A DNA stretch of 64,000 nucleotides from a bacterium. Lineage in GTDB: Bacteria > Fibrobacterota > Fibrobacteria > UBA11236. The translations under genes were made by a program, and so were the position numbers. The notes below the pieces were generated by a model, which saw nothing but the letters and a program-made list of their open reading frames with translations, was not told the DNA's origin and did not search any database. The number at the start of each line of letters is the position of its first letter. The stretch's first letter is position 1. The stretch lies in the NCBI GenBank assembly GCA_900299345.1, contig OMJM01000031.1, positions 14,788 to 78,787 on the forward strand, in the 5' to 3' direction. Shown here in pieces: positions 5,804-60,656 of this stretch.

Positions 5804-6086
5804 AAAGGCGTTCCTTCCGATCTGGTAGTTTGGGGAAGTCTAAGCTGCTTTTTTACCCGAAATTCGTCAATTTTTAATTGAATCGGAAGCAAAACATGTC
5901 AAAAATATCCTAGAAATACGCGCCCCACTGAAAAATTCAAGAACGATAATCTACCAAAGCCCTCATTCAGCGAAATTCGCCAAGCGTGCTGGCGAAAAAC
6001 GTATTATATTCCCTTCACTTGACACCCTCCTTGCCAGCAAGGAACTACAAGTTTTGAATCACAGACGCAATCACGGGGGAGATCCA

Positions 6087-8448: not shown

Positions 8449-8617
8449 ATAACGGAAAATTCAGGATTTCGAAGGTACTTGTAGAATTCTACCCCAAAAA
8501 CCATCACCCGACCTTATATTTGAAGGGCTCGGTTATCCTCCATCTACGTTTTTGGCCGCGATAATCAAGATTATTCCGAAAATTCGGGAAACAAAAATTT
8601 CTAAGGAGAGGGTGAAC

Positions 8618-43706: not shown

Positions 43707-44642
43707 ATGAAGTCATCCGTTTTCTCTCTTGCGCTTTTGCTGTTGAATGCGCTGATGTCATATGCGGACGGCGTCCGGCCTCTGCGTTTTGGCCCGTTCC
43801 TCCAGCAAAGTATCGCCTTTGAAGGCAGCCCCACGGGTTATGCCTATGTCCCACCCTCGGCCACCTACAATTTTCAGGCCGGGTGGATGGAACCCATTGG
43901 TTTTCTGCCCCGAGCCGTGTTTCACGGGGCCTACCTTGAAACCCAGGCTAATGCAACACTCTCGCCCTACCAATCCGATCTCGGGGTGATTATCAATTTC
44001 AAACCCATACGCTTTTTGGAAGGCGGCGTGGGTTACAATCGGTTGCTTTTCCCCTACACCTTGCTTGGATTTTCCTGGCCGGCCGGTGCGGGGAACGGAT
44101 GGGTTCCTTCTGTGGAACAATGGCGGACGACGCAAATTTCGAGCGGGCGAAAAAACGAAAGCGTCGGTGCAGACATTTTCACCTACCAGGCCAACTTTAC
44201 CATGGATGTGGGCAAAGTGCAGCTGCATGCAGGCGCTTTCAGGAGTCTTTGGGATGTGGACGTGCAGGATCGAGACGTTGTGCTGGAATACCGATCTGGA
44301 CTGTTGATTCAACGTCGGGACCGGATCAATTCGACCTACGCGCAGATGCTTTTGAAACTCGACCCCACCTCTGAATGGCTGGGGTTCAGGGCAAGTGGGT
44401 TTGAAATCCGCGATCAATACTGGTGGGTGACACATACTGGGTTGACTCAGAACATCGTGTCCGCAGTGTTGTCAGGCCTGCGGAGGGGACGCAACAACGA
44501 CCGGGCTTACCACGGTCTGGACATCCTGATCGGAGGTTGGACAGATCATCCCCAGTTCGAAGGCCACGAATGGTGGACACGACTTTACCTCAACCTGCGG
44601 TGGACTTGGAACATCCAGATCCTGCACCTGGGAGAGGATTAA
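43707..44642 (+). CDS. hypothetical secreted protein (possibly outer-membrane beta-rich)
   Basis: Signal peptide MKSSVFSLALLLLNALMSYA; Trp/Tyr/Gly-rich amphipathic strands; no family recognised. Confidence 0.4.
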   Translation: MKSSVFSLALLLLNALMSYADGVRPLRFGPFLQQSIAFEGSPTGYAYVPPSATYNFQAGWMEPIGFLPRAVFHGAYLETQANATLSPYQSDLGVIINFKPIRFLEGGVGYNRLLFPYTLLGFSWPAGAGNGWVPSVEQWRTTQISSGRKNESVGADIFTYQANFTMDVGKVQLHAGAFRSLWDVDVQDRDVVLEYRSGLLIQRRDRINSTYAQMLLKLDPTSEWLGFRASGFEIRDQYWWVTHTGLTQNIVSAVLSGLRRGRNNDRAYHGLDILIGGWTDHPQFEGHEWWTRLYLNLRWTWNIQILHLGED

Positions 44643-44645
44643 ACC

Positions 44646-45464
44646 TCAGTTAGCATTCGGGTCTTCCGAGCCTCCATCCGGGACTATTTCTCTTGGGGAG
44701 GCCTCCAACGTCATCTGTCTCGGAAGGCCACGCACAGGTACCCTCGTATTATCCAAATCCTTGGTACTAGAAGTCGCTTGGAACTCCCCGAGAGAAAGCC
44801 GGGCAGAAGACAGACTGTCGCTATCAAACACGTGAAACTCAACAGGCAAATAAGCCCCTCCACCTGTCTGACGATAGGTCGTAATCTCCAGCGATTTGAG
44901 CCTATTCCCACCGGGGCTGAAAAAAACCACACGGCGCAACAACACCGGCTTACGACGCAAAGAAACGTCAAGCGAACCATATCGCGAAACCGACTGTGGT
45001 TTGAGCTTCAACCTCATTTCGTAGGTGGAATCTGTATCTGGAAGCTTCTCACATGACTCGAATTCAAGCAGATAATCTGCCGGAAGCTTCATTAGATCCT
45101 CATAGGTCAACAGCGAGGCGAAGGCCGGCTTCTTTAGCGACCGCAACGGAATGCGATGTTGCCTTTTGCTGTTTGCGTCCGCCCACCATTGTTCCTGGCC
45201 GAAATTCCTGCTCCACCAGTCAAAAGCGTCGTCGCGACCCCTGAGGCGCATCTGCCGATCTCCGCTTAGATCGTCAAAGTTCAGGCGGCCCCGCAGAGAA
45301 TCCACACCATGTAAAAACGATTCACGAACAAACACGACATCCGCAGCGTAGCTTCCGCGGTACTGATTTTCAGAAGCCTGCTCCAGCAGTTTCAAAGTGG
45401 AATCCGTTTGAGACCGGGAAACGCCAAAACACAAGGCCAGAAAGGCGAAAAAATTTCGCGTCAT
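44646..45464 (-). CDS. hypothetical secreted protein (possibly LolA-like fold)
   Basis: Signal peptide MTRNFFAFLALCFGVS; no confident family assignment. Confidence 0.35.
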   Translation of the reverse strand: MTRNFFAFLALCFGVSRSQTDSTLKLLEQASENQYRGSYAADVVFVRESFLHGVDSLRGRLNFDDLSGDRQMRLRGRDDAFDWWSRNFGQEQWWADANSKRQHRIPLRSLKKPAFASLLTYEDLMKLPADYLLEFESCEKLPDTDSTYEMRLKLKPQSVSRYGSLDVSLRRKPVLLRRVVFFSPGGNRLKSLEITTYRQTGGGAYLPVEFHVFDSDSLSSARLSLGEFQATSSTKDLDNTRVPVRGLPRQMTLEASPREIVPDGGSEDPNAN

Positions 45465-45482
45465 TTCAAAGTGCCAAGATAG

Positions 45483-46730
45483 CTAGGGTGTTTTTAAGAC
45501 TACCGCTCGCGCCCGCCCGGTAGGGTGCAGCTGCGAAATCTTCCGCCCCTTCACATCAATCGGGGCCGTTCCATCGTCCAAAAGTTTTTTCAAAGCTGCT
45601 TTTCTAGTGGCGATGGAAACAGGAGGCTGCGTCGCACCCAAGGTAACCGCGGTAGCGCCGGATTTCTGGGTTTCATAACTCAACTTGGCCCAGTTGGCGG
45701 AACGAACCACATTGGAAAGCTGTGATTCATCGAGTACTCCCTGATAGTAGGCGTCGCCCGTGAAAAAGGAGCGACCCATGTAAGCGGTGCGGGCCACAAC
45801 TGCAAGCGCTGCGGTAAGGGTACCTGCCTGAGCCTGTACACCATTGTGATATACCACGGTCGACATGCCGTTCAACGTAACGAGATAATGATGCCATTGA
45901 TTCACGGTCAGCACGCCGGTGGCGGTGGTCATACCCAGCGAAGTTCCCCCGTTACGAAACTCCAGCGTCAAATTATTGGTGGTGCCATTGCGGAAAAGTT
46001 CAATATTCCCGTTGGCATTTGCGCCCGCGGCGGCTTCAAACAGTCGTGAATAGGCTCGATTGGCATCGGTGGGATAAGCCCAAACGGAATAGCTGAATCC
46101 GCTGCTGTAATCCATGTACCCTCCGCCCAACGTCAGGTGATCACTGGTGCTTCCCGCTGCGCCACCGCGCAAGGTATCCGCCAGACCAATAACTCCGGCC
46201 TTGGCGGCATAACCACCCGGAAAATTCACAGGCGTTGCAGCATTACCCCCCTGCACGGCATTGGGACGCGCAGCAGTTCCAGAAGCGTCCCCCATATGCC
46301 ACACACCTTGAAATCCATTGGCCGCAGAGAAAACCTGTCCGCCGTTGGAACTGTCACCCGCACCATTTTTTCCCCAGCACATCCGCAAGGTGGTGGTGCT
46401 GTTTCCCAACACAGTGTCCAGCAACACCCAGAATTCCGCGGCCTTGGCCGCGCTATCCCAGCGCTCGCGTTGATGGGGAAACCTTGATGTTCCATCTGCC
46501 GTGGTGAAGCGAATGTCAGCACCATTAATTGCCGCCAGCGAAAACACGTCAGCATTTAAGGGCGTGAGACGCACCAGCAAGGGAAATTTGCCGACACCCC
46601 CGGTGACATTTGCACCCGTAGAAGTTGTATTCACAGTGATCATCTTGTAATGCGACCATGTCCCATAATTCTCCTGCGCCCCGGCGGCGAAAGCACAGAC
46701 GAGCAGAAAACGGATCATCGACTGAATCAT
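45483..46730 (-). CDS. secreted DUF2341 + LamG (concanavalin-A-like lectin) domain protein
   Basis: Signal peptide; YGTWSHYKMITVNT...FPLLVRL...IRFTTADGTSRFPHQRERWD..AEFWVLL = DUF2341 signature; downstream LamG/Laminin_G_3-like region; paralogous to the N-terminus of 46743..49244. Confidence 0.6.
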   Translation of the reverse strand: MIQSMIRFLLVCAFAAGAQENYGTWSHYKMITVNTTSTGANVTGGVGKFPLLVRLTPLNADVFSLAAINGADIRFTTADGTSRFPHQRERWDSAAKAAEFWVLLDTVLGNSTTTLRMCWGKNGAGDSSNGGQVFSAANGFQGVWHMGDASGTAARPNAVQGGNAATPVNFPGGYAAKAGVIGLADTLRGGAAGSTSDHLTLGGGYMDYSSGFSYSVWAYPTDANRAYSRLFEAAAGANANGNIELFRNGTTNNLTLEFRNGGTSLGMTTATGVLTVNQWHHYLVTLNGMSTVVYHNGVQAQAGTLTAALAVVARTAYMGRSFFTGDAYYQGVLDESQLSNVVRSANWAKLSYETQKSGATAVTLGATQPPVSIATRKAALKKLLDDGTAPIDVKGRKISQLHPTGRARAVVLKTP

Positions 46731-46742
46731 GACAGGTAACCT

Positions 46743-49244
46743 TTAGAGTGACAGGATGATTTTGGACGCTGCAAGCACTTCGGGCTTCCCTGTGCCATCC
46801 GAAATCACCTGCACGAAGTAAACTCCCGGAACCGGGAAGCCACCCTCGGAATGACCATCCCACGACACCTGTGTCGCCCCACTTTTAACATGACGACTCC
46901 AGACCGAACGACCATGCACATTGAGCACGGAAACAAGAACCGGACCGATTCCATTTGGCAGACGGATGGTGATCGAAGAAAGCCCATTGATATCTATCCC
47001 ATGTAAATTGCGGATCTGCGCTTCTATTGAAGATGAGGATATCACCCAAAGCGTCAAAATCGCGGTCGTGGAACCCACTGCATTGGTCGCCGTGATAGTG
47101 AAATCCGAGTAAGACGGGGTGGATGCCGTGGGCGTTCCAGAAATAATTCCCGTCAAGGTATCGAATGCAAGACCCGCAGGCAATACGGGGGTGATACTCC
47201 ATCGCGTCACTGTTCCTGTCACCGTCGGAGTATTCGCGGCAATGGTCTGACCTTGCGTGTACGTGGCTGGATTGGCGTTATAAAACAGTCCTGATGGAGC
47301 GCCGTACACCGTAATGCTGATCGTGACGGTTGCGGAACCCGCCGCATTGGTGGCAGTGACTGTATAGGTTTTCGTGGCCACAGTAGATGTGGGTGTTCCA
47401 GAAATCACACCTGTAGTGGCATTGAGACTCAAGCCCGCCGGTAGTGCTGGGTTCACCGCATAGGTCGCCACAGTACCCGTCACAGTCGGGTTGTTGGCGG
47501 TGATCGCGATGCCGCGCGGGTAGTTCGCCGTGGGAGTGGAATAGGAAAGTCCCGTGGGAGGTGCCAACACCGTGATGTTTACAGTTGCTGTCGTGGAACC
47601 TGCAGAATTACCGGCAGTCACGATATAATTGGTCGCTGGTGAGACTGCCGTGGGCGTTCCCGAGATAACACCCGTCGAGGTGCTCATCGTCAATCCGGCG
47701 GGAAGCGCGGGGGAAATCGAATACGACGTCACCGTGCCCGTCACCGTAGGACTATTCGCAGTGATGGCCGTATTGAGACCATAAATCGCGGGAGATGACG
47801 AGTACGACAATCCCGTGGGTGCGACCAGGCTTCCGTTCACCGCTATGGATAGTTGCGCAGTGGCGGAACCTCCAGCGTTGGTGGCAGTAATCGTATACGT
47901 CGTGGCGGATGCCGTGGCTGTCGGTGTTCCGGAAATCACACCCGTCTGCGTGTCGAAGGACAATCCGGCGGAAAGCGCCGGAGAAATCGAATAGGATGCC
48001 ACGCTGCCGCTCACCCGAGGGGTGCTGGCTGGAATGGCATAACCCACCGTATACACAGCGGGATTGGGGGCATAAGAGAGATTGTAAGGTGCGATGGCTG
48101 CCGTGGCGCCCAAAAGCACAAAAGAGGAATCCGTGCGCTGAGTCTGATAGCTCAATTTGATCCAGTCCGCAGACTGCGCCCTGCCCGCAAGCTCCACTTC
48201 ATCCATTGTACCGTTGAAATACTGATCATAGGGGGCCGACGAATCCATCTTTCCAATCGTGAATGCATCGGGCCAGACTTGATCCAAAGATGTCATGCCG
48301 GTCGCCGAATTGGTGGCCCTTTGTGTGCCGTTGATGTATATGATTCTGGAATTCGCCGTGAGCGTGGCGGCCACATGGTACCACGTATTGTTCGTCGCGG
48401 TGACTGTGGAACTGAGCGTTGCATCGGCACCACCATCCAGGGAATAAAACAACGAAATAAGACCCGCATTGTTGGTCACCAAGGCATATTGACGATTCGA
48501 TCCGTTACTGTAGGTATACCGGCCGGCCATGCACTGGACGGGATTGGTATTGCTGGTATTGGTTCCGGTGCGACGCATCCAGAAGGAAAGCGTCACGCCA
48601 TCGGTGCTGTTCATGTCGAGTCCACCATTGACATTTGTGGCAGTGAGGTATTTTCCATTCAGACCCGTGGCACCCTGGCCCGAACCATTGGCAAGGTTGA
48701 CCGCCTTGCCAATCATTCCATCCACGGAAGCAGGGCTGTTCTGCCATTTCGCTTCGAGATTACTGGGAGTTGCATCCGCGGATGGCGTTGAACTTTCCCC
48801 CAAATGCCACACTGCACGGAATGAATTGTCCCTGTTGAAGACCGCCGTTCCGCTCGAACTGTCCGGGGCACCGGTCTTGGACCAATAAATCTGGAGAGTG
48901 GTCGTATCGTTCCCTTTGACGTTCGGAACACGCACCCAAAATTCCGCCAACTTATTGGTTACATCCCAACGCTCACGTTGATAGACCAGATGCGTGGTGC
49001 CTCGGGCAAAACGAATGTCGAATCCATTCGCAAGCGCCCCTGTAAAAATGTCATTGGCGTTTGTGGCGTTGAGACGCACAAGCACGGGAAAGTCCGTTTG
49101 GGCGTTGGTAACACGAGCTCCACCAGCCTGATTACGGGTATCGATGACGATGGGTTTGTAGTACCCCCATGTCGTATAATCTTCCGCAGACACCAACGTG
49201 GATAAGCCAACTAGAAAACCGAAAAAACAAGCTTTGATGGACAT
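46743..49244 (-). CDS. secreted DUF2341 + LamG + six He_PIG repeats + T9SS-type C-terminal domain protein
   Basis: DYTTWGYYKPIVIDT..FPVLVRL..IRFARGTTHLVYQRERWD..AEFWVRV (DUF2341); six repeats ..SYSISPAL.AGL.....TGVISGTPTA..; C-terminus ..GGFPVPGVYFVQVISDGTGKPEVLAASKIILSL. Confidence 0.65.
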   Translation of the reverse strand: MSIKACFFGFLVGLSTLVSAEDYTTWGYYKPIVIDTRNQAGGARVTNAQTDFPVLVRLNATNANDIFTGALANGFDIRFARGTTHLVYQRERWDVTNKLAEFWVRVPNVKGNDTTTLQIYWSKTGAPDSSSGTAVFNRDNSFRAVWHLGESSTPSADATPSNLEAKWQNSPASVDGMIGKAVNLANGSGQGATGLNGKYLTATNVNGGLDMNSTDGVTLSFWMRRTGTNTSNTNPVQCMAGRYTYSNGSNRQYALVTNNAGLISLFYSLDGGADATLSSTVTATNNTWYHVAATLTANSRIIYINGTQRATNSATGMTSLDQVWPDAFTIGKMDSSAPYDQYFNGTMDEVELAGRAQSADWIKLSYQTQRTDSSFVLLGATAAIAPYNLSYAPNPAVYTVGYAIPASTPRVSGSVASYSISPALSAGLSFDTQTGVISGTPTATASATTYTITATNAGGSATAQLSIAVNGSLVAPTGLSYSSSPAIYGLNTAITANSPTVTGTVTSYSISPALPAGLTMSTSTGVISGTPTAVSPATNYIVTAGNSAGSTTATVNITVLAPPTGLSYSTPTANYPRGIAITANNPTVTGTVATYAVNPALPAGLSLNATTGVISGTPTSTVATKTYTVTATNAAGSATVTISITVYGAPSGLFYNANPATYTQGQTIAANTPTVTGTVTRWSITPVLPAGLAFDTLTGIISGTPTASTPSYSDFTITATNAVGSTTAILTLWVISSSSIEAQIRNLHGIDINGLSSITIRLPNGIGPVLVSVLNVHGRSVWSRHVKSGATQVSWDGHSEGGFPVPGVYFVQVISDGTGKPEVLAASKIILSL

Positions 49245-49270
49245 CTTTATATCTCCGATTTTAATCTCAG

Positions 49271-49335
49271 GGGGCTAAAAAATACAAGAAAAAACAAAAA
49301 TAAGGGCCACTCCCGCACACGGCGAAAAGTGGCCC
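49271..49335 (-). terminator. rho-independent terminator downstream of recA
   Basis: Stem GGGCCACT/AGTGGCCC (49304-49311/49328-49335) followed on the minus strand by TTATTTTTGTTTTTTCTTGTATTTTTT. Confidence 0.6.
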
Positions 49336-49364
49336 CGCTCCCATCCGGAGATCGGTAATCTCAA

Positions 49365-50477
49365 TTATTCGGCAACGCGGATATCGCTCCAATCCTCATC
49401 CTGAGAAGCGGCTCCAGCGTGGGCTTGAGCCTTAACTTCATCGCGGCTGGTTTTCAAAGTCTGACGGACTTTGGCGTCGATTTCAGCCGCCAACTCCTTA
49501 TTCTCCTTGAGATAGTCGCGAGCGCGTTCACGCCCTTGGCCGATGCGTTCCTTCCCGTATGAAAACCATGTGCCTGATTTCTGGACGATTTCCAAATCCG
49601 TGGCCAGATCGAGCAGGCTGCCCTCCCGCGAGATTCCCGTTCCGTAGAGAATATCGAACTCGCATTGCTTGAACGGGGCCGCCAGCTTGTTCTTGACGAC
49701 TTTGACGCGCGTGCGGCTACCCACCGCTTCTTCACCCTCCTTGATGGATGCGACCTTGCGAATGTCGAGACGCACGGATGCATAGAACTTGAGCGCGTTA
49801 CCACCGGTGGTGGTTTCGGGGTTGCCGAACATCACGCCGATTTTCATGCGCAACTGGTTGATGAAAATAAGACAGCACTGGGAACGACTGACAATGCCCG
49901 TGAGCTTGCGCAAGGCTTGCGACATGAGACGAGCTTGAAGCCCCATGTGGGAATCCCCCATCTCGCCGTTAATTTCGGCCTGCGGAACTAGGGCCGCCAC
50001 CGAATCCACCACAATAATGTCCACAGCACCGCTGCGCACGAGAGTTTCGCAAATGTCGAGTGCCTGTTCGCCGGTGTCCGGCTGCGACACAAGCAGATTG
50101 TCGATGTCCACTCCAAGACGACGGGCATACAGCGCGTCAAAGGCGTGTTCGGCATCGATGAATGCGGCGATGCCCCCGGCCTTCTGAGCTTCGGCTACGG
50201 AATGCAGCGCCAGGGTCGTCTTTCCCGAGGATTCCGGTCCGTAGATTTCCACGATGCGCCCCTTGGGTAATCCACCCACGCCAAGCGCCATGTCGAGCTG
50301 AATACAACCTGTGCTGACGATGGGAACATCCAGGGTTTCTTGCGAACCCAAGGTCATGATCGAACCCTTTCCATGGGCCTTCTCGATCTGGGATACGGCG
50401 GTTTCCACCGCGCGCCGTTTGCTCGCGGTCTCTTCGGACTTTTGCTCGGACATCGGGGACGTTTTCTTCGCGCTCAT
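49365..50477 (-). CDS. recA: recombinase RecA
   Basis: GPESSGKTT Walker A, full-length RecA conservation (..[38 protein letters not shown]..); AAGGAG RBS. Confidence 0.97.
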
Positions 50478-50516
50478 GGCGGCACTCCTTTGAAATGGTG
50501 GAAATAATCTAATGAC

Positions 50517-50536
50517 TACTGCTCACTTGTGCAATG
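50517..50536. promoter_or_regulatory. candidate SOS (LexA-type) operator upstream of recA
   Basis: TACTGCTCACTTGTGCAATG: half-site TACTG conserved, second half weaker; 40-60 nt upstream of recA ATG; speculative. Confidence 0.25.
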
Positions 50537-50561
50537 CTTTTTTGAGTAGAAATAAATATTT

Positions 50562-51811
50562 TCATAACTCCTTTAAAATCAATAATCTAAGCCGATTTAA
50601 AGCCGAGTAGGCACTCTGCCATCGATTGGTTTTCCGATCACCGCGGAACACAAATTTTTGAACCTCAACACTTTTTTGCGATGCGACGGCGATATAAACC
50701 AGCCCTACGGGTTTTTCTTCCGAACCCCCATCAGGGCCCGCGATTCCGGTGATGGCAACAGCGTAATCCGTGTTGGAATTTTTCAAGCAGCCGCGTACCA
50801 TCGCCAATGCCACCGGCTCGGATACGGCTCCGTGTTGCTCCAATAATTCTTGCGGCACATTCAAAAGTCCATTTTTGGCCTCATAGGAATACGTGAGAAA
50901 ACCCTGACGGAACACGCTCGAGCTTCCCGGAATTTCCGTGAGCAAATATCCCAAAGCGCCGGATGTACACGACTCCGCCACGGACACAGTGCGATTGGAG
51001 TTCTTCAATAACCTGAACACCGTCTCCGTCAACGACGCTCCATTTCGCTCCACAATGCATTCGGCCGGAAACCGCTCCAGCATCTCTTCCCATGCTTGAT
51101 CGAGTCGGGTTTGCATGGCTTCTGCTTCGGCGCTATCTACGAAAGCCTCCAACGAAATCGTCACGCCGGGTTCGGACGGAAGCGAAGAGAAGCGAAACGG
51201 TTCCGGCGTCACGAACCCTTTGAGACATTCCCGTTGCCGGCTTTCGCTCAGACCGAATGTGACGACACGCTTGTGCAACAACACGGCATCACGCCGCAAC
51301 AGCAAGGGCCGGCAATGCTCATCGAACATGGTGCGAAACTCGTAAGGCACACCCGGGAAAGCAAAAATATTGATGCCGTTTTTTTCAACGCGGAAGCCGC
51401 AGGCTGTGCCCGCTGTGTTACGCAAAGGAATGGAACCACCCGGGATATGAAGTTGTTGGCGTTGCCCTTCGTTGATTTTATCCGCAGAAACACCCAGGCG
51501 CTCTGCGAGCCAAGCCTCGGCCTCCCGACTGAATTCCAAGGGCTGCCCAAGGAACTCCGCCACAGCTTCACGCGTGATGTCGTCCCGCGTGGGACCCAAT
51601 CCTCCCGTGAGGATCAGCATGCCACAGCGCGGAAGCACACCGGATTCGGACACGACGCTTCGCAATGTATGGCTGATGGCATCCGCATGATCCCCAATGG
51701 TCAGGTTGAAAGCCAGCTCGTGTCCCAACTCCGCAATCCATCCGGCCAGATCACGAGCATTGGTATTCAGAATCTTTCCAAGGAGTAATTCGTCGCCGAT
51801 ATTGATGAGAC
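50562..51811 (-). CDS. cinA: competence/damage-inducible protein CinA (MoCF-binding N-domain + CinA C-domain)
   Basis: Start at MRIGLINIGDELLLGKILNTNA (51811); C-terminal CinA-type deamidase-like domain; immediately upstream of recA as in many bacteria. Confidence 0.85.
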
Positions 51812-51868
51812 CGATGCGCATGCCATCACGAAATATAGGGAGATCCCCGGAAGTATCTTTCGATTCGG

Positions 51869-52828
51869 ATGCTTGCGCGCTTTTTCCTCCCGGTTCTGCT
51901 CCTGATTTCCATCGGCCTCTCCGCCGATCCTCGCCCGCCATCCGGCATCCCCGAAATCGACAGCTTGCCGCTGAACGACTGGAAAGCACAGAGCCATCCC
52001 CTGTCCACCTTCAAAGCGGTGTCCCTGTCCGCCGTGTTTCCCGGCGGCGGACAGTTCTACGGCGGCCATCCCGTGCGCGGAAGCTTTCTGGTCGGCCTCG
52101 AATCGGTGCTGTTCGGTTTATCCCTGTATACCTACCTCGTGGACCTCCCCCGTCTTGATCGCGTAACCAGCGATTATCTGGATTCCGCCAATTCGGCCTT
52201 TGATCGCATGATGCGCCTCACTCCGGATCAACGTGCCAGCAGTGTGGACAAATCCACCTTCGAAATTTCGATCCAACGTGCAAGGAACAACGCTTCATTG
52301 CGTTTGCAAAAAGCGGATCTCGCCAACTCGCAACTGGCATGGGCCATCGGATTGCATTTCTACGGCATGGCCGATGCGCTGGAAATCGCCCGGAAGAGCC
52401 AGAACCCCGATCCAAAATCCCGTTCCATCGAGAAGGCCATGTGGTGTGGTCTCGCCTTTCCTGGCGGTGCGCAACTCTACAACGAGCGCTACGGAAAATT
52501 CGGGATGTTGTGGATGGCGCTTGGCGCCAGCGCGGTGTCGGCTTGGTCGCGGCAAAATGTGGTCGAGTCGCTCAACCTGTCCATCGCCTCGGCCCGGGCT
52601 GAGGAAGGTACTGGAGGGATTGCGACGGACGTCGAGCAACTCGATGTGGACCGTACTCTCTACCGGAAGCGGAGGAACCAGTATTACTGGGGTATGGCCC
52701 TGCTTTACGTTTATGGGGTTCTGGACGGCATGGTGGATGCAGCTCTGTCGGACTTTGACAAACCCAACCGCTACGCCCTCGAGCCGGGTTCTACCCCCTT
52801 GTCGGCCGTAGCAGTAGTTCATTTCTGA
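51869..52828 (+). CDS. hypothetical membrane protein with two DUF5683-like motifs
   Basis: Signal/TM; repeated SAVFPGGGQFYGGHP and GLAFPGGAQLYNERYGK resembling the DUF5683 (..PGlGQiYN..) pattern. Confidence 0.45.
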   Translation: MLARFFLPVLLLISIGLSADPRPPSGIPEIDSLPLNDWKAQSHPLSTFKAVSLSAVFPGGGQFYGGHPVRGSFLVGLESVLFGLSLYTYLVDLPRLDRVTSDYLDSANSAFDRMMRLTPDQRASSVDKSTFEISIQRARNNASLRLQKADLANSQLAWAIGLHFYGMADALEIARKSQNPDPKSRSIEKAMWCGLAFPGGAQLYNERYGKFGMLWMALGASAVSAWSRQNVVESLNLSIASARAEEGTGGIATDVEQLDVDRTLYRKRRNQYYWGMALLYVYGVLDGMVDAALSDFDKPNRYALEPGSTPLSAVAVVHF

Positions 52829-52891: not shown

Positions 52892-53269
52892 ATGTCCACA
52901 GCTGCCATCCGGGGCTTTGCCGCCATCGCAAACGACCACCTCGAGGCGCCGCTGGATATTTATCGCCTCTTGGTGAAGCATCCTGCAGCAACCTTCATCA
53001 TGCGAGCCAGCGGGCAGTCCATGAGCCCGGCGATTTGCAGCGGCGACCTGCTGTTGGTGGACAAATCGCTCACCGCGCGCGATGGCGACATCATCATCGC
53101 CTCGGTCAACGGAGAACTGATGGTCAAGCGTCTGTTCAAGCGCGAGGGCCTGCTCACCTTACTGCCGGAAAACCGTGAGTACTCCCCCATCGACGTGACT
53201 GCGGGTTTCGACTTCCAGATCTGGGGCGTGGTCACCTACATCATCCGCGACACGTGTACGCCATCGTAG
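52892..53269 (+). CDS. umuD: translesion-synthesis protein UmuD (S24 LexA-like peptidase)
   Basis: S24 catalytic Ser in ASGQSMSP and Lys in MVKRL; 125 aa; overlaps umuC start by 16 nt. Confidence 0.85.
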   Translation: MSTAAIRGFAAIANDHLEAPLDIYRLLVKHPAATFIMRASGQSMSPAICSGDLLLVDKSLTARDGDIIIASVNGELMVKRLFKREGLLTLLPENREYSPIDVTAGFDFQIWGVVTYIIRDTCTPS

Positions 53270-54507
53270 ACTGCAATAACTTCTTCGTCAGTTGCGAGCG
53301 TGTCTTCAATCCACGGCTGGAAGGCCGGCCCGTGGTGGTGCTTTCCAACAATGATGGCTGCGCGGTCTCGCGTTCCGATGAAGCCAAGGCACTGGGTGTT
53401 CCCATGGGCGCTCCGCGCTTCAAGTTCCGCGACCTCGAGAAACGTCACGGCATCGTGTGCCTGTCGTCCAATTTCGAATTGTACGCCGACATGTCGCGGC
53501 GGGTCATGTCCCTGTTCGATCAATGGTCCCCGGACGTGGAACCATACAGCATCGACGAGGCCTTTCTCTGGCTTCAAAATCCCTCGCGTGATTATCTCGA
53601 AAAAATCGCCCGGGAGATCCAGACAACGGTCAAACAGTGGACGGGAATTCCCGTGTCCGTGGGTGTCAGTACCACGAAGACGCTTTCCAAGGCTGCCAAT
53701 GACTTTGCCAAGCGCAACAAACTGGGAATCAAGATTCTGCCAATTGCAGAAGCGCCGGAAATGCTCTCCAGGCTGCACGCCAAGGATATCTGGGGCATCG
53801 GCCGCAAATTGACGGAATGGCTGGGTGAACGAGACATTCAGACGGCCCTGGAACTGAGCAACACCCCGGATCGCTGGATACGAAAACATCTCGGAGTCAC
53901 CGTGGAACGCACCGTGATGGAACTCCGGGGAATCCCCTGCATCCCCATGAACTGCCATCCCGGCGCACAGCGGAACATGGTGCATGCGCGCTCCTTCAGC
54001 CACCGGGTGGACTCCAAAGATGAACTCCGCACGGCCGTGGCCTATTACGCGGAACGCGTCGCGGCCAAACTGCGCCGGGAAAAATTGGCCGCGCAAGCCG
54101 CATGCGTTTTCCTGTCCACCGACTACCACAAGCCGCAGGACTCGCAGTATCACGGCTCGGAAACCTTGGCGTTTCAGGTGCCGACGAATTTCACCCCCGA
54201 GGTCGTGGAATACGCCCTGAAGGCGTTCGATCAAACCTTCCGTTCCGGCTTCCGCTATAAGAAAGCTGGAGTCATGATGCTGGAACTGGTCCCTCAGGGC
54301 GAGGTGCAGGGAGAACTTTTCGATAAGGTGGATCGTTTCAAAGCCAAAAAATTGATGTCCGCGTTGGATATTATGCAAGCGCGGCACGGCGAACGGGCTT
54401 TGCATTTCGCCATGGGAGGCGCGCAGGATGGCTGGCAATCGAAACGGGAATTCCGGACCCCGCGCTATACGACAAAATGGAACGAAATTCCGGTGGCACG
54501 CGCGTGA
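53254..54507 (+). CDS. umuC: Y-family DNA polymerase V catalytic subunit UmuC
   Basis: MYAIVDCNNFFVSCERVFNPRLEGRPVVVLSNNDGCAV N-terminus diagnostic of UmuC/DinB family; 417 aa. Confidence 0.9.
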   Translation: MYAIVDCNNFFVSCERVFNPRLEGRPVVVLSNNDGCAVSRSDEAKALGVPMGAPRFKFRDLEKRHGIVCLSSNFELYADMSRRVMSLFDQWSPDVEPYSIDEAFLWLQNPSRDYLEKIAREIQTTVKQWTGIPVSVGVSTTKTLSKAANDFAKRNKLGIKILPIAEAPEMLSRLHAKDIWGIGRKLTEWLGERDIQTALELSNTPDRWIRKHLGVTVERTVMELRGIPCIPMNCHPGAQRNMVHARSFSHRVDSKDELRTAVAYYAERVAAKLRREKLAAQAACVFLSTDYHKPQDSQYHGSETLAFQVPTNFTPEVVEYALKAFDQTFRSGFRYKKAGVMMLELVPQGEVQGELFDKVDRFKAKKLMSALDIMQARHGERALHFAMGGAQDGWQSKREFRTPRYTTKWNEIPVARA

Positions 54508-54703: not shown

Positions 54704-55717
54704 CTAGTGCACGTACACCTTTTGCAACACGGTGTTTTTAGCGGAAGAAATCCGGACGATGAACATACCGGATTTCGCCAAGGCAAGGCGCTGCTCCGCG
54801 ACGGGACCGCCTTCCCCGCGCACAGAACGGATGGTTTTTCCGGACAGGTCCATGACCTCGACGGAGTATTTTCCCGGAACCGGCACGCGAATCAGCAATG
54901 AGTTTCGACCGCCTTCGACGGCATAGCGGGATTGCGATTGGAGGGCGCCATTGATGGCCGTGCCACCGCCAACGCCGTCCATGTTACGAATCTTGATGTT
55001 TTTGAACTGGGAAACCTTGACGGTTTCGTATTGAAGCGCGATAAGTCCAGGAGAGGTCGCAGCCACGTGCTGCGCGTTGGTCAGCTTGAGGGTGGTGCAG
55101 GTTATTCTCGTCGAGGGGCTCGCGAAGCCGTTGGGAAAATAGGACATGGTGATGGAGTCATTCACGATTTTGTAACTCAAATCCATGAAGTTGGTGGTGT
55201 TGAGATGGCACGAAGCAGGAGCGGTCGCCAAGGTCGTGTTCCCGCTATTGTAAACGTTACCGGTATATGTGGGGCCCAAATCGATTTGAGGGCCGAAAAC
55301 CCGGTATCCCTGACTCTGGCCTCCGCAAAGGTTGGTAATGGTTCCGCTACCGCAAAACCCACGCATGTTGAAACCGGAGTTACCGCTCGGACTACTCGTC
55401 ATACGCCAAGAGAAACGAAGCTCAATGTTCGCCTGTGTGGGAGATGCCTGAAACTTCCAAACAAGATTGGTCCATCCAGGATCTCCAGTGTGAGCCAGTC
55501 CATCGGTGGTTATCATGGCGCTGTCCGTGCCTGGATTGGCGATTCCCCAATTGGCGGTATGCGGCCAGAACTGGGTGGTGTCCAAAGTTCTCCTGTTCCA
55601 CAGGTCGTGGTACAAGGTGTCATTTTGCCAGATGGAATCCGGGATGGCGGAAAAAATCGAGGTGGCCCATACGAACGACACAAACAACGCTGAACCGAAA
55701 AGTCTTGTGGTTTTCAT
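54704..55717 (-). CDS. secreted DUF1080 (3-keto-disaccharide hydrolase-like, LamG fold) protein with T9SS-type C-terminal domain
   Basis: Signal peptide; NSGFNMRG..GYRVFGPQIDL and LQYETVKVSQFKNIKIRNM match DUF1080 blocks; C-terminal tail KYSVEVMDLSGKTIRSV...GMFIVRISSAKNTVLQKVYVH. Confidence 0.7.
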   Translation of the reverse strand: MKTTRLFGSALFVSFVWATSIFSAIPDSIWQNDTLYHDLWNRRTLDTTQFWPHTANWGIANPGTDSAMITTDGLAHTGDPGWTNLVWKFQASPTQANIELRFSWRMTSSPSGNSGFNMRGFCGSGTITNLCGGQSQGYRVFGPQIDLGPTYTGNVYNSGNTTLATAPASCHLNTTNFMDLSYKIVNDSITMSYFPNGFASPSTRITCTTLKLTNAQHVAATSPGLIALQYETVKVSQFKNIKIRNMDGVGGGTAINGALQSQSRYAVEGGRNSLLIRVPVPGKYSVEVMDLSGKTIRSVRGEGGPVAEQRLALAKSGMFIVRISSAKNTVLQKVYVH

Positions 55718-55743: not shown

Positions 55744-57156
55744 TTAAATGGCCACCTGAACGCGTAGCACGTAATACCAGGAGTCCTTCTGCAACATGAC
55801 ATCACCGTAGGACCTGTCAAAACGATTGGTAAACAACTGCATGATTTGCATGTGGTCACTGGATGCCTTGGCGGTGACGGAAAGTGATTTCCATAAGGAT
55901 TTAGTCGCAGTAACCGACCATCTAAAATCATCGCCGTCCACGGCGTCGCGAGCGGATAGGCCGAGGTTCGTATTCCCATCCAAATACGGAGCTGCCACGG
56001 GACCGGTGGTGCTATTCGCCACTTTGAAATCCGAATTCAGGTAGGGATTTTTCCAATATTCCCCTTCCACGCTCAACAGATCGAGCACGCCCCACGTCGG
56101 AATGTTCAATCCCAGCATGATCGGCATCCTCTCCATGGGTTTATCGTAGAATACGGGATAATTTTGCACTCCCAACATCGCCCATTCGCCGTAAAGTTTC
56201 AAGTCGACGGCATTTCCGAAAATAGGCTTGAAGTCGATGGAAAAACGGGTCATCAGCATCTGCCCCTTCAGCGAATAATAACCCAAGCCAGAGACTCCTG
56301 AGGGAAGCGCCTTGCTCGTGTCGTTCAACACCTGATACACGGAGTCGGCGATGGCGGAATCGGCGCCCGAGTAGTAACCGGGAATGGTGGTGTATTTTTT
56401 TCCGTTGGAATAGGTAAAATACGCGTTCAACGGTTCATTTTTATTGGTCTCCAGCTCCGATTGAACGGGGATCAGGCGAAACAGGTTGACTCCAGCCCCA
56501 AATTCAAGAACAGAATTGATCCGATAGCTTGTGATATACGCCAGGCTGAAATCCCCCAGCGGGAAGCTGGCGTTGGAGCTTATCAAAAAGAGGTCGTTCT
56601 TCCATTTCCCCCCTGCGGCGGTCTTGCTCAAAATACCGCCTAAAATATTGGCGTGTGCCGCGTTGACGACGTCAAACGGCGAGTTCAAAACAGTATTGGG
56701 ATAGGGAGTGGAACGGAAAAGATATTCCCCCAAATCTTTGGAATCCGGATTGTATTTGTAAGGAAGGGCGCCAAAGGTGATCTCGAGAGCCGGAGCTTTC
56801 ACATCGCCCCACTTGTAGGAACCCGAAGCCTGAACCATTGATACGGCGGGGAAAAGCTCGTTTTGAAAGGGATATGGAAACGTACCGGAATTGTGGGGAA
56901 GGGAGAAAACCGTGGCCCCCAAACCAAAAGTCAAATCGGTTCTCTCATTCAGAGTCGCGCCCCCGAAAACCCAGCCGGTGGGCCTTATCATAAACATGGG
57001 GGCAAAGGATTCCGTTGGCACAGAACTGATCGGCGAAAAAGTCTGAAACTGCTCCAAGGCGACGCCAGCACTAACAGGATGCACCACCACATCTGCGGGC
57101 GCTGGCAATACCGCAAGGGATGCCAGACCCAAAATGGTACTCAGGGCTTTTTTCAT
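55744..57156 (-). CDS. putative outer-membrane beta-barrel protein, tandem paralog 2
   Basis: Signal peptide MKKALSTILGLASLAVLPAPA; alternating amphipathic strands; C-terminus SWYYVLRVQVAI shared with the upstream paralog; ATG immediately follows the upstream TAG. Confidence 0.5.
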   Translation of the reverse strand: MKKALSTILGLASLAVLPAPADVVVHPVSAGVALEQFQTFSPISSVPTESFAPMFMIRPTGWVFGGATLNERTDLTFGLGATVFSLPHNSGTFPYPFQNELFPAVSMVQASGSYKWGDVKAPALEITFGALPYKYNPDSKDLGEYLFRSTPYPNTVLNSPFDVVNAAHANILGGILSKTAAGGKWKNDLFLISSNASFPLGDFSLAYITSYRINSVLEFGAGVNLFRLIPVQSELETNKNEPLNAYFTYSNGKKYTTIPGYYSGADSAIADSVYQVLNDTSKALPSGVSGLGYYSLKGQMLMTRFSIDFKPIFGNAVDLKLYGEWAMLGVQNYPVFYDKPMERMPIMLGLNIPTWGVLDLLSVEGEYWKNPYLNSDFKVANSTTGPVAAPYLDGNTNLGLSARDAVDGDDFRWSVTATKSLWKSLSVTAKASSDHMQIMQLFTNRFDRSYGDVMLQKDSWYYVLRVQVAI

Positions 57157-58458
57157 CTAGATGGCCACCTGCACGCGGAGCACATAGTACCAGGAACCCT
57201 TGCGAGACATCACGTCGCCATAAGACTTCGAAGGAAAGCCGCCCACATTGAATTCCATCATTTGCAAATGATCATTTGCCGCCTTGGCGGTCAACGAAAT
57301 TGTTTTGGCCAAAGAGCGGGTGGCCGAAACTGACCATCTCAAATCATCATCTTTCACAGCATCCGTCGGCTTCAAATCCAGCTGCTTGTAAGAGTTGGTA
57401 TAATCCAAGTTCGGCGTTCCAGAACCATTATTGATAATGCCCAGTGTGGAATTCAGATAGGGATTCTTCCAATATTCCATTTCCACGTTCAGCATGTCGA
57501 GCACCCCCCAGGTGGGGATGTTCAATCCAACCATCACGGGCAGCCTGTCCATCATCTTGTCGTAATAACGGGGAAAATTCTGGACGCCCAGCAGGGTTCC
57601 CTCCCCGTAGAGCTTCAGGTCTGTTCCAAGAACAGGCTTGAAGTCGAGAGAAAACCTCGCCATTATCATCTGCCCTTTCAGCGAATAATAGCCCGAGCTG
57701 TCAGGATAGCGGTTGGTATCAGCCTTCCACGTGGTGATTGACGGCTGAACGGGTATCAGACGAAAAAGATTGACTCCGGCACCCAACTCCAAAATCGGAC
57801 TGATCCGATAACTGGTCACATAAGCCAGGCTGAAATCGTACAAGGGGCTGGATTGGGTGGCGCTGGTGATCAACAGATCATTTTTCCAGCTTCCCCCAAA
57901 CATGTTTTTGCTCAACATCAAGGCCAGGATATTCGCCTGGGCCGAATTGACCAGATCGAAAGGTGAATTCAACACGGTGTTGGGATAGGGCGTGGAACGG
58001 AATAGGTATTCGCCCAGATTCTTTGCATCCGGATTGTACTTGTAGGGCATTTGCCCGAAGGTCAGCTTGAGCGCGGGCTCTTTCAAATCCCCCCACGTAT
58101 AGGAACCTGATGCCTGTACCAAGGCCACTGCCGGGAACAACTCAGTTTGGTAATTGGTGCTCCTCGGATATGAACCGCTGTCATGCGGCAGTGAAAAAGT
58201 GGTCGCTCCGATTCCCATGACGAGGGAGATTCTGTCGTTGATGGTGGCGCTTTCAAAAATCCACCCCGTGGGCCTCACCATGAGCAAGGGTTCGGCAGGA
58301 TGGGCCAAGTTCAAATAACTATTCGCATTGTAAAGCTGGAAAGCTTCCAGAGCCACTCCCGCATTCACGGGGTTTCGCACCACATCCGTCGAGGCGGCTG
58401 AAAACATGAGGAGCGGCAAACCGGAAAGGATCCACTTCATGCCAGACTTCATTTTCAC
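57157..58458 (-). CDS. putative outer-membrane beta-barrel protein, tandem paralog 1
   Basis: Signal peptide; collinear similarity to 55744..57156 (..RPTGW.F..AT.N.R..L..G.GAT.FSLPH.SG..P.. ; ..LFRSTPYPNTVLNSPFD.VN.A.ANIL..); same C-terminal SWYYVLRVQVAI. Confidence 0.5.
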   Translation of the reverse strand: MKMKSGMKWILSGLPLLMFSAASTDVVRNPVNAGVALEAFQLYNANSYLNLAHPAEPLLMVRPTGWIFESATINDRISLVMGIGATTFSLPHDSGSYPRSTNYQTELFPAVALVQASGSYTWGDLKEPALKLTFGQMPYKYNPDAKNLGEYLFRSTPYPNTVLNSPFDLVNSAQANILALMLSKNMFGGSWKNDLLITSATQSSPLYDFSLAYVTSYRISPILELGAGVNLFRLIPVQPSITTWKADTNRYPDSSGYYSLKGQMIMARFSLDFKPVLGTDLKLYGEGTLLGVQNFPRYYDKMMDRLPVMVGLNIPTWGVLDMLNVEMEYWKNPYLNSTLGIINNGSGTPNLDYTNSYKQLDLKPTDAVKDDDLRWSVSATRSLAKTISLTAKAANDHLQMMEFNVGGFPSKSYGDVMSRKGSWYYVLRVQVAI

Positions 58459-58537: not shown

Positions 58538-60406
58538 TCAACGGGTAAACTTCGCCTGAAGAATTCCCTTTTCCAGATCACTGGGGACCTGTACGCTGGA
58601 TTCGTTGCCACGGTAAGACCAGACTTCCCTACCCTGCAGATTGTATAGCGTGACGCCGGAATATCCTTGAGGGATATTCACCATCGACCCGGGCATGGCG
58701 GAAACCATCAGCTTGCCTTGCTTGACGGAACGTCCTGTCTGCCAGATGCCTGTAGGCACGGGCACGACCTGCGAGCGCGGCGTGGCCAGCGGGGTCAGTT
58801 GGGCATGGGTGAGCATGAAAATGTCATGCCATTGAAAAGCACCACTGCTGCTCGACGACAACACAATGGGATACAGGTTGCCGTAAGAGTCCTCTGACCA
58901 AGTGGTGATTCCGTTGTGGTTTTGATCTCCACTGAAGGCGTAACTGGTGGGAAAATTCCCAACAAATACTGGAGCAACTCGATCGACCTTGGCTGCGAAA
59001 AAACGATTCCGCACGCCGTTTACGGCTCCATTGATATCGCTAATAATCATGTATCCATAAAACGGAGAGGAGACGTCCCCACGAATCACAGGGCTGATAT
59101 TTCCGACATTTGCAGACGAGTTCGCAGCAGAATTCGCAAGGTTATCGGTGGCTCCCGTGGCATGTCCGGTATACCACGCGGCGTTTTGAAAATTCGCGCA
59201 CGTGTAGGTTCCATTATAGGCAGTTCCTGTCACCGTACGAGTATACGGGGTGATGAAGCCCGCCGTGCCAGTGGTACCGATATTGGTGTTGGTCGATGTG
59301 TAACCTCCGCCCGCAGAGGTACTATCCAAATTGGCACCCACATGACAGGGACCTTCGATACCGGAGCTGTTGGCTCCCGCAGTTGAATTATCTCCGCCGT
59401 TATTCCAGCCATAGTTTCTGCCCGGAAGAATGTGGTTAATCTCTTCCCAACGGCTCTGTCCGGTTTCGGCGCCGTACAACTGGTTCGTTAAATAATTGAA
59501 AGACAACGAGTAGGTGTTGCGAAAACCGAAGGCATACACTTCCTTCCTGACGGCAGGATTGCTCACGTTGTACCAAGGATTATCGCTCGGGATCGTATAG
59601 ATTCCGCACGGAAGATTCGTGTTGGAAGGAGCCGTGTAGGCGGTGGCTCCACAAGCTCTCGCCGGATCCACTTGAGAAACATTGATGCGAAGGATCTTCC
59701 TGCCAGTGATGGTACTGTCCCAACTGGAAAGGTTGTATGCGTCAGTGGTGATGTACAGCATACCGTCGTTGCCGAAAACCATATTGCTGGAGCCATATCC
59801 TGTCCCATGAAAAAGGCGGATCATTTCAGTATCGCGTGCTACGCTCTTGAAATCGGCTGACATGATGTAACGATCCACGACCACAATGGCAGTGGGATTG
59901 TTGGGGCCATCGTTGTTTCCGCTGGGTGTCGTGCCCGCTCTGTATTGACTGGCAACAGGGTACTTGTTGTAAATGACATAGAAATAGTGGTTGGTTTTGA
60001 AATTCGGATCAAAACTGCCACCCAACGCTCCAAATTCCCAACCCTTCATCACCCATGTGTTGAAATCAGCCACCTGAGTGCGTGTGTACTTCTTGACAGT
60101 ACCGTAAGAGACGGTGGTGTCCACGGCAACACCCTGCGCGTTGGTGTCAGGATAAAGTGTCCACATGTAACCAAAGTACCCGACCACAAGGAAATGTTTG
60201 GGCTTTCCAGGAACTTCCCACATACCCACATAGGGCAGCTTGTCCTTCCTGAAGCTCAATCCTGCCTGGGTTGTGTCATAGATGGGGGTTACCGAAACGC
60301 CGGTGGGCAAGCTCTGTGCGGAAGACGTGGCCACGAGAATGGCGACTGCTGCGAAAAGCGACAAGGTAATGCGTTTACGAAATGCGGAGTCAAGAAAATT
60401 TTTCAT
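58538..60406 (-). CDS. secreted PQQ-dependent sugar dehydrogenase-like beta-propeller (soluble glucose/sorbosone dehydrogenase family) with T9SS-type C-terminal domain
   Basis: Start at MKNFLDS (60406) with signal peptide; GSDH-family blocks: HGTGYGSSNMVFGNDGMLYITTD, GRKILRIN, EVYAFGFRNTYSLSFN, GRNYGWN; C-terminal tail ..YSGVTLYNLQGREVWSYRG...GILQAKFTR. Confidence 0.65.
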   Translation of the reverse strand: MKNFLDSAFRKRITLSLFAAVAILVATSSAQSLPTGVSVTPIYDTTQAGLSFRKDKLPYVGMWEVPGKPKHFLVVGYFGYMWTLYPDTNAQGVAVDTTVSYGTVKKYTRTQVADFNTWVMKGWEFGALGGSFDPNFKTNHYFYVIYNKYPVASQYRAGTTPSGNNDGPNNPTAIVVVDRYIMSADFKSVARDTEMIRLFHGTGYGSSNMVFGNDGMLYITTDAYNLSSWDSTITGRKILRINVSQVDPARACGATAYTAPSNTNLPCGIYTIPSDNPWYNVSNPAVRKEVYAFGFRNTYSLSFNYLTNQLYGAETGQSRWEEINHILPGRNYGWNNGGDNSTAGANSSGIEGPCHVGANLDSTSAGGGYTSTNTNIGTTGTAGFITPYTRTVTGTAYNGTYTCANFQNAAWYTGHATGATDNLANSAANSSANVGNISPVIRGDVSSPFYGYMIISDINGAVNGVRNRFFAAKVDRVAPVFVGNFPTSYAFSGDQNHNGITTWSEDSYGNLYPIVLSSSSSGAFQWHDIFMLTHAQLTPLATPRSQVVPVPTGIWQTGRSVKQGKLMVSAMPGSMVNIPQGYSGVTLYNLQGREVWSYRGNESSVQVPSDLEKGILQAKFTR

Positions 60407-60656
60407 GCGCTCTCCTTTGAATTCTATGCAAGCCGGAAAAGAGTTTCGGCGTACAGCAATGTATTGTGGCTTTTGGTTCCCCGCTGGCAAAAAAAGACAA
60501 AGCGGGAAATCCCAAACACTAACGGGCCTTTAAAAAGATCCCGACATATTTGATTTGTTTGGGAGAATCCGAAGCACGCGTTCGATCGCGGAGGGAAAAT
60601 CGCTCGGGATAATGTCACAATGGCCGCGGATATTGGCCAAAAGTGACTTTTATCCT

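Follow-up and report, generated by a model that had tools for sequence, protein, structure and literature searches.

A recA-linked tandem pair of DUF2341-LamG proteins in a Fibrobacterota genome: predicted exported binding proteins, one with a putative type IX secretion tail

We analyzed a 64-kb stretch of DNA from a Fibrobacterota bacterium (contig OMJM01000031.1; "the window" below means this whole stretch), in which two adjacent genes, referred to here as the long and the short paralog, encode proteins that begin with a DUF2341 domain followed by a LamG domain. The reading that we favor, with a probability of roughly 0.55 and on the strength of sequence comparison and structural models, is that both genes encode exported, noncatalytic binding proteins, that the long one is displayed on the cell surface by the type IX secretion system (T9SS), and that the ligand is probably a glycan. 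The pair belongs to a very large, known, and uncharacterized class of proteins and is ordinary for Fibrobacterota.

Domain searches bore out the architecture that a first-pass annotation of the window had proposed for both genes. DUF2341 (PF10102) was matched at 49.8 bits by the long paralog and at 48.9 bits by the short one (cut-off 23.4), and Laminin_G_3 (PF13385) was matched at 71.7 and 69.8 bits, respectively (cut-off 27.6). The N-terminal regions were also expected to align, and they do, at 37% identity over ~370 amino acids (aa) with an E of 1e-54. The motifs quoted as a DUF2341 signature (the Y..W box, FPVLVRL, IRF, QRERWD, and AEFWV) are present in the paralogs, and several are invariant in an alignment of 41 relatives: F-P and the W of EFWV stand unchanged throughout, and the invariant residues of the module further include the H of VWHLGE, G, and the D-E of the IDEVR motif. 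These residues probably mark the fold-determining positions of the module. By inspection, both proteins begin with a hydrophobic Sec-type signal peptide, and the start of the mature chain, (E/Q)(D/N)Y..W, is conserved among relatives.

AlphaFold2 (AF2) models of this head are compact and of high confidence, with a DUF2341 beta-sandwich packed on a LamG/concanavalin A (ConA)-like domain. The short paralog was modeled as two beta-rich domains with a predicted local distance difference test score (pLDDT) of 86.7 and a predicted TM-score (pTM) of 0.85, and aa 20-145 of the long paralog were modeled as a 7-8-strand sandwich with one helix (pLDDT 95.5). A Foldseek search of the Protein Data Bank (PDB) with the DUF2341 domain model gave no significant match (best E 0.14), and a family sequence profile searched against the PDB likewise found nothing for the DUF2341 part; for the LamG half the same profile matched an S-layer protein (4qvs, E 9e-24) and domain 4 of the Geobacillus arabinanase AbnA (E 2e-18). 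Foldseek matches to the short-paralog model were confined to the LamG half and comprised AbnA domain 4 (5hon, TMt 0.76), the lectin domain of Trypanosoma cruzi trans-sialidase, pentraxins, and the N-terminal half of the receptor-binding (Hc) fragments of tetanus and botulinum toxins. Among solved structures, the nearest relatives of the LamG half are noncatalytic binding domains.

In the long paralog, the head is followed by four He_PIG repeats, not the six that had been counted at first: self-BLAST placed them at aa 386-472, 476-559, 563-649, and 650-737, with a mutual identity of 56-58%, and PF05345 was passed at 125 bits (cut-off 24) in four stretches (E 1.3e-36). Each is an immunoglobulin (Ig)-like unit of ~87 aa. 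Beyond the repeats, the last 96 of the 833 aa form a domain that had been described as a sorting tail. The description held in part, since TIGR04183 (T9SS type A) matches this region at an E of 5e-4, but its 20.0 bits lie under the 23-bit cut-off; PF18962 scored 12.5 bits (cut-off 27) and PF13860 (FlgD_ig) 19.5 bits (E 1e-3). The domain occupies the extreme C terminus of a protein that carries an N-terminal signal peptide, it aligns to the corresponding domains of relatives via the motifs RLP, SVxDxxGRxVWS, and GVYxV, and it shares 37-38% identity (E 1e-12) with those of the paralogs at a related recA-linked locus, L040, described below. These similarities are suggestive of a T9SS type A sorting domain. 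In Fibrobacter succinogenes, use of a T9SS together with basic C-terminal domains has been suggested (PMC6851124), and the system is possibly present in Fibrobacterota (PMC11285876).

Other proteins in the window bear comparable features. Unrelated exported proteins of the 3keto-disac_hyd, GSDH, and DUF7133 families share a T9SS type-A-like tail, and one of the tailed proteins, encoded at 54704-55717, passes TIGR04183 with 28.9 bits; judged by such tails, the window encodes many putative T9SS substrates. BLASTP of the tails of both paralogs against all open reading frames (ORFs) of the window gave weak matches only, the best (E 0.049) to the C terminus of 58538-60490, and visual comparison and hidden Markov model (HMM) searches told more about the tails than BLASTP did. 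He_PIG repeats also recur at 33863-35281 on the plus strand, where a 472-aa protein with a lipobox-like N terminus (LLLNSCDD) has three of them (E 1.7e-28) and has no DUF2341, LamG, or sorting-type tail.

We propose that the long paralog would cross the inner membrane by Sec, be recognized by the T9SS via its C-terminal domain, and be displayed on the cell surface, where the He_PIG repeats would act as a stalk that distances the DUF2341-LamG head from the cell. The fast-evolving LamG domain would be the ligand-recognition part, and the more conserved DUF2341 domain may serve as a scaffold or docking surface. The short paralog, with the same head and what looks like a remnant of a sorting domain, would probably be periplasmic or arrive at the surface by a different path, possibly together with the long paralog. 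The ligand would most likely be a glycan, such as a plant, fungal, or microbial polysaccharide; this is our best guess because of the nearest solved LamG domains and the enzyme-rich neighborhoods of relatives. A secreted surface lectin or adhesin had been suggested from the start, and the signal peptides, the stalk, the T9SS-like domain, and the LamG matches support that suggestion without proving it.

Several observations weigh against this proposal. The TIGR04183 score of the long paralog falls below the curated cut-off, and neither the C-terminal strand nor the full fold of such a domain is present in the short paralog. No T9SS core genes (PorK/L/M/N, SprA, PorU, or PorV) were found among the window genes scanned, and the neighbors cinA, recA, LolA_like, and mutY offer no functional hint. 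Finally, LamG domains bind proteins and lipids too, which bears on the choice of a glycan as the likeliest ligand.

The relatives of the pair are abundant. A first search returned 41 proteins at 26-36% identity, and those with a source name came from metagenome-assembled genomes (MAGs) of Fibrobacteres; a profile search, for which 120 proteins were listed, included four ortholog-like proteins (P0259, P0270, P0275, and P0292) annotated with DUF2341, LamG, He_PIG, and FlgD_ig, like the long paralog. P0259 is collinear with the long paralog over its full length at 48% identity. When the profile was run against cluster representatives, 417,673 proteins matched at E <= 1e-3 and 50,551 at E <= 1e-30, and the highest-ranking matches were giant proteins in which the module occurs 3-30 times. 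Reiteration on a smaller scale was seen in an 842-aa protein with two DUF2341-LamG units (P0195, at 1685-4213 of L038) and in a protein of at least 1992 aa with at least four units and He_PIG spacers (3199-9174 of L041); the L041 contig and one contig of the window's organism derive from a single metagenome sample (JGI 3300047401). A scan of genome contigs yielded 22 related loci, all in Fibrobacterota MAGs save one in Victivallales; the window's own species was not among its matches, the best of which was 35% identical.

The relatives fall into two layouts. In type A, a lipobox is followed by a CarboxypepD_reg region of ~200 aa, and the core lies at the C terminus; in type B, to which both window proteins belong, the core comes straight after the signal peptide and is followed by a C-terminal extension. 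In many type B relatives a Gln directly follows the predicted cleavage site (…A/QENY…W), as it does in the short paralog (AGA/QENYGTW, 46674-46730). The first-pass annotation had taken MotA/TolQ/ExbB machinery to be the usual company of DUF2341, but the recurrent partner in the Fibrobacterota neighborhoods surveyed proved to be a TIGR02147/DUF4423 gene, not ExbB. Type A genes almost always lie directly 3' of, and overlap, such a gene (~275 aa, 285 bits against a cut-off of 50), whose product has an N terminus that looks like an XRE-type helix-turn-helix. In all, 29 TIGR02147-lipoprotein pairs were counted in 22 loci (Table 1), sometimes with two or three cassettes in succession. These cassettes often adjoin secreted glycoside hydrolases (GH) or other exported enzymes; those beside lipoprotein-type relatives include GH94, fucosidase, GH28, GH43, GH39, and PA14/CHB_HEX proteins. 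The window holds no TIGR02147 homolog detectable by tblastn with seven DUF4423 proteins (best E 0.076), and our literature search found no mention of TIGR02147 and met DUF4423 only in an unrelated context. Judged from gene order and domain content, the cassette could be a phylum-specific unit of a regulator and a glycan-binding lipoprotein, and as such it could be a polysaccharide-utilization-type unit particular to Fibrobacterota.

The position after recA recurs among relatives. On a 317-kb contig (ENA ERZ26871208), locus L040 (3618-15249) carries, in a gene order that matches the window, DUF5683, cinA, and recA genes and then an array of five to six DUF2341-LamG paralogs, one of them an fn3-rich protein of 963 aa, compared with two paralogs in the window; RecA is 88% identical between the two loci, and the paralogs are 37-47% identical. 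P0254 and P0255 sit after cinA-recA, as the window paralogs do, and arrays recur elsewhere, as a tandem pair in L003 and a near-tandem pair in L011. Within pairs of relatives the DUF2341 domains are 51-63% identical and the LamG domains 30-48%; between the long paralog and P0259, identity is 61% for the stalk and C-terminal domain and 36% for the LamG domain. Since LamG is less identical than other parts in the same protein pairs, the presumably ligand-facing LamG half is the fastest-changing part. A recent duplication was considered for the window pair and rejected, since the two share 37% identity and do not group as sisters in a rough neighbor-joining tree. The pair may represent one instance of a recA-adjacent locus at which paralogs duplicate and diverge. 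It is conceivable, though we regard it as doubtful, that the position downstream of recA is a conserved Fibrobacterota "diversification locus" of rapidly duplicating and diverging T9SS-displayed DUF2341-LamG lectins, in which short forms that lack a full sorting domain would ride on or regulate the long, surface-anchored form via DUF2341; if this were true, lineages would hold their own repertoires of surface recognition specificities.

The fast divergence of paralog arrays would also fit recognition of a host or partner, and the strongest competitor of a glycan ligand is that the two are surface-coat or cell-cell and protein-binding proteins, whose LamG domain binds a protein or lipid in attachment to other microbes or in a structural surface layer. 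We consider this unlikely, although several observations favor it: 4qvs, the PDB entry that the LamG half matches best by sequence, is an "S-layer domain-containing protein," the related LamG domains of neurexin, pentraxin, and the toxin Hc-N fragments bind proteins or lipids, giant surface proteins from many phyla contain the module in repeated copies, and a role in adhesion or at the pilus tip has been discussed for DUF2341 proteins (PMC11809585, PMC4858521). On the other hand, relatives from the same phylum repeatedly adjoin secreted glycan-active enzymes, and the domain that matches best by structure, domain 4 of AbnA, was determined with a ligand bound. A glycan ligand remains our preferred reading.

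The short paralog differs from the long one chiefly in its tail, a basic stretch of 48 aa. No Pfam or NCBIfam family matched this tail at E <= 5, and no sorting domain was detectable in it; AF2 predicted a helix at aa 373-385 followed by a disordered segment (pLDDT < 50). Its IDVKGRKI motif resembles the RgpB strand-3/strand-4 loop motif, and similar basic tails with [FIY]D.xGR are present in P0238, P0241, the L003 pair, L011_b697, and P0009, of which P0238 and P0241 are 409-aa proteins laid out like the short paralog. A complete seven-strand C-terminal domain with an intact C-terminal strand was not found in the short paralog. Experiments on Porphyromonas gingivalis cargo show a requirement for the entire C-terminal domain, the last strand included (PMC11285876), and for that reason we do not class the short paralog as cargo of the T9SS. 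One could argue that the short paralog arose by duplication and is now decaying, with its sorting domain gone and no separate function left, keeping one C-terminal-domain motif ahead of 20 final residues that AF2 models as disordered. We find this improbable: the ORF is intact, its head is modeled with high confidence, an identical protein is present on 15 contigs from several metagenomes, and other organisms have proteins that equal it in length and share its kind of tail (P0238 and P0241 at 36-37% identity; P0277 at 66%), which argues for maintenance of the short paralog by selection.

That the paralogs are enzymes, with a glycoside hydrolase, lyase, or esterase-associated active site on the ConA-like fold, is quite improbable. 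The profile search did reach GH16 enzymes and beta-glucanases of the ConA-like superfamily, albeit weakly (3d6e and 1gbg, E ~0.01), and some Fibrobacteres relatives are named "acetylesterase." However, the top 50 structural matches were overwhelmingly noncatalytic lectin-like domains or the lectin-like parts of multidomain proteins, and the invariant residues form no obvious catalytic pair. About ten proteins in the profile list, from Sumerlaeota, Planctomycetes, and other MAGs (P0252, P0257, P0260-P0262, P0266-P0268, P0271, and P0280), are ~1000 aa long and combine SASA (PF03629; sialate O-acetylesterase-type), DUF2341, and LamG. They are probably the source of the acetylesterase names, which were most likely transferred from them to the Fibrobacteres relatives; SASA is absent from the window pair.

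The lack of a MotA/TolQ/ExbB partner, singled out at first as unusual, was confirmed for the window but is not unusual. Neither paralog matches MotA_ExbB (PF01618), Pfam found no such domain in window ORFs of >=150 aa, and a home-made ExbB HMM had no match in window ORFs of >=90 aa or in 41 related loci; this HMM was built from three fused proteins and is narrow, and precomputed Pfam annotations agree with it. Only 3 of the 120 profile matches listed are fused to MotA_ExbB (P0294, P0297, and P0300), and no ExbB gene was found within 8-10 kb of ~30 distinct related loci (11 look-ups of Pfam annotation; 41 loci by HMM). The missing partner is therefore not an anomaly, and the notion that DUF2341 normally accompanies ExbB-type motors needs to be corrected. 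That the window proteins are periplasmic partners of a proton-driven ExbB/TolQ-type motor encoded elsewhere, as split versions of DUF2341-LamG-ExbB fusions, is the least probable of the alternatives, given that, although such fusions exist (PMC12505986) and the short paralog, which has no complete export domain, could stay in the periplasm, the fused forms are the most distant matches (24-29% identity), ExbB genes were found neither near the related loci nor in the window, and a location at the cell surface is indicated for the long paralog by its stalk and outer-membrane sorting-type domain.

The genes are arranged on the minus strand in the order cinA, recA, long paralog, short paralog, LolA_like (Table 1), with a gap of 12 nucleotides (nt) between the paralogs. 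The locus is also carried by contigs of JGI 3300047401 and 3300051163 and of ENA ERZ27299050 and ERZ2945103. The hairpin that separates recA from the long paralog has a folding energy of -23.4 kcal/mol (z -3.15), none of 200 shuffled sequences folded equally well, and it is likely the recA terminator. In view of this hairpin and its U-tract, the paralog pair would form a separate transcription unit, in which LolA_like is probably included as the last gene. A sigma-70 promoter scan of 44400-50700 was uninformative, with 5 sites versus 4.0 expected. We also considered LolA_like as a conserved partner and rejected it, as L040 and L038, the two closest related loci checked, yielded no homolog.

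Table 1. Coordinates of the paralogs, their predicted parts, and other features (window positions unless a locus is named)
Feature	Position	Strand	Basis or remark
Long paralog ORF, 833 aa	46743..49244	-	ORF and translation
Predicted Sec signal peptide, long paralog, aa 1-20, MSIKACFFGFLVGLSTLVSA / EDY	49185..49244	-	Inspection of sequence
DUF2341 beta-sandwich, long paralog, aa 21-140	48825..49184	-	PF10102 over aa 74-137
LamG/concanavalin-A-like domain, long paralog, aa 141-381	48102..48824	-	PF13385 over aa 200-362, E 9e-20
Four tandem He_PIG Ig-like repeats, long paralog, aa 386-737	47034..48089	-	Self-BLAST; Pfam
T9SS type-A-like / FlgD-Ig-like sorting domain, long paralog, aa 738-833	46746..47033	-	TIGR04183, PF13860
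Short paralog ORF, 415 aa	45483..46730	-	ORF and translation
Basic C-terminal tail, short paralog, aa 368-415 (48 aa)	45486..45629	-	One PIDVKGRKI strand motif
LolA_like (PF17131) gene	44646..45464	-	Pfam E 6e-11; 18 nt 3' of short paralog
Hairpin and U-tract, recA/long paralog gap	49289..49336	-	Sequence; RNA fold
recA	49365-50477	-	Upstream of long paralog
cinA	50562-51989	-	Precedes recA
Proteins with T9SS type-A-like tail	54704-55717, 58538-60490, 60657-61766, 61773-63722, 6054-8390, 8552-11056		Tail comparison
TIGR02147 cassettes	L001 9177-11782; L012 7168-9731; L013 7190-9659; L014 7168-9737
TIGR02147 cassettes	L015 7174-9665 and 15768-17665
TIGR02147 cassettes	L016, L018, L019, L021-L024, L026-L030, L032-L036

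Near cinA-recA, at 52892-54507 on the plus strand, a Peptidase_S24 gene (UmuD/LexA-like, ~125 aa) overlaps a Y-family polymerase gene (IMS, IMS_C, and DUF4113), a couple that looks like an SOS-type mutagenesis pair and is kept on other contigs of the same organism. Farther along, the minus-strand genes 55744-57156 and 57157-58458 encode adjacent paralogous exported proteins of 470 and 433 aa with no Pfam or NCBIfam match; three homologs (30-36% identity) are consecutive in L038, beside 3keto-disac_hyd and DUF2341-LamG genes.

If the proposed function is correct, the pair adds two members to a class of bacterial surface proteins that is very large and unstudied. With such proteins the Fibrobacterota, which play an important part in the degradation of plant and chitinous biomass, may attach to polysaccharides or to partners. 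The practical value of the present work is modest, with the LamG half shown to be the fast-evolving part. Two leads are worth keeping, the recA-linked paralog array and the TIGR02147 cassette, the latter being the more interesting one, although it lies outside the window.

The window proteins can be set against several known systems. Among these are archaeal DUF2341 proteins of type IV pilus loci (Methanococcus epd locus, MMJJ_08210) and giant DUF2341 surface proteins of Patescibacteria, which share the DUF2341 domain and a proposed role in adhesion or at the surface (PMC4858521, PMC10133366, PMC11809585) but belong to another domain of life or another phylum and are distinguished by pilus-gene neighbors or giant size; no Pfam match to pilins, type IV pilus proteins, or secretion ATPases was found among the window genes scanned. 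DUF2341-LamG is also known as an N-terminal appendage of the A subunits of ExbB/TolQ-like "generic ion transporters" (PMC12505986). In these subunits a signal peptide is likewise followed by the two-domain periplasmic module, at 24-29% identity, but the chain runs on into a MotA_ExbB membrane domain, whereas the window proteins have neither a membrane domain nor an ExbB/ExbD neighbor. In AbnA, domain 4 (5hon/5ho0) matches the LamG half by profile and by structure, with a root mean square deviation of 3.5 A and 15-19% identity, but it is joined to a GH43 catalytic domain and is not accompanied by DUF2341.

The comparison extends to the TIGR02147 lipoprotein cassettes of the same phylum, whose DUF2341-LamG core is homologous at 26-36% identity. 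The cassette proteins have a lipobox, CarboxypepD_reg, and a C-terminal core, and their genes follow an overlapping TIGR02147 gene, whereas the window proteins have a type-I-like signal peptide and an N-terminal core, and recA lies upstream. Further counterparts are the uncharacterized DUF2341/LamG proteins of Fibrobacterota MAGs (P0259, P0270, P0254, and P0255). While the window has two paralogs rather than the five to six of L040, and the short paralog is without most of the C-terminal domain, these proteins have the same signal peptide, DUF2341, and Laminin_G_3 domains, an optional He_PIG or fn3 stalk, and a C-terminal FlgD_ig/T9SS-like domain, as does the long paralog.

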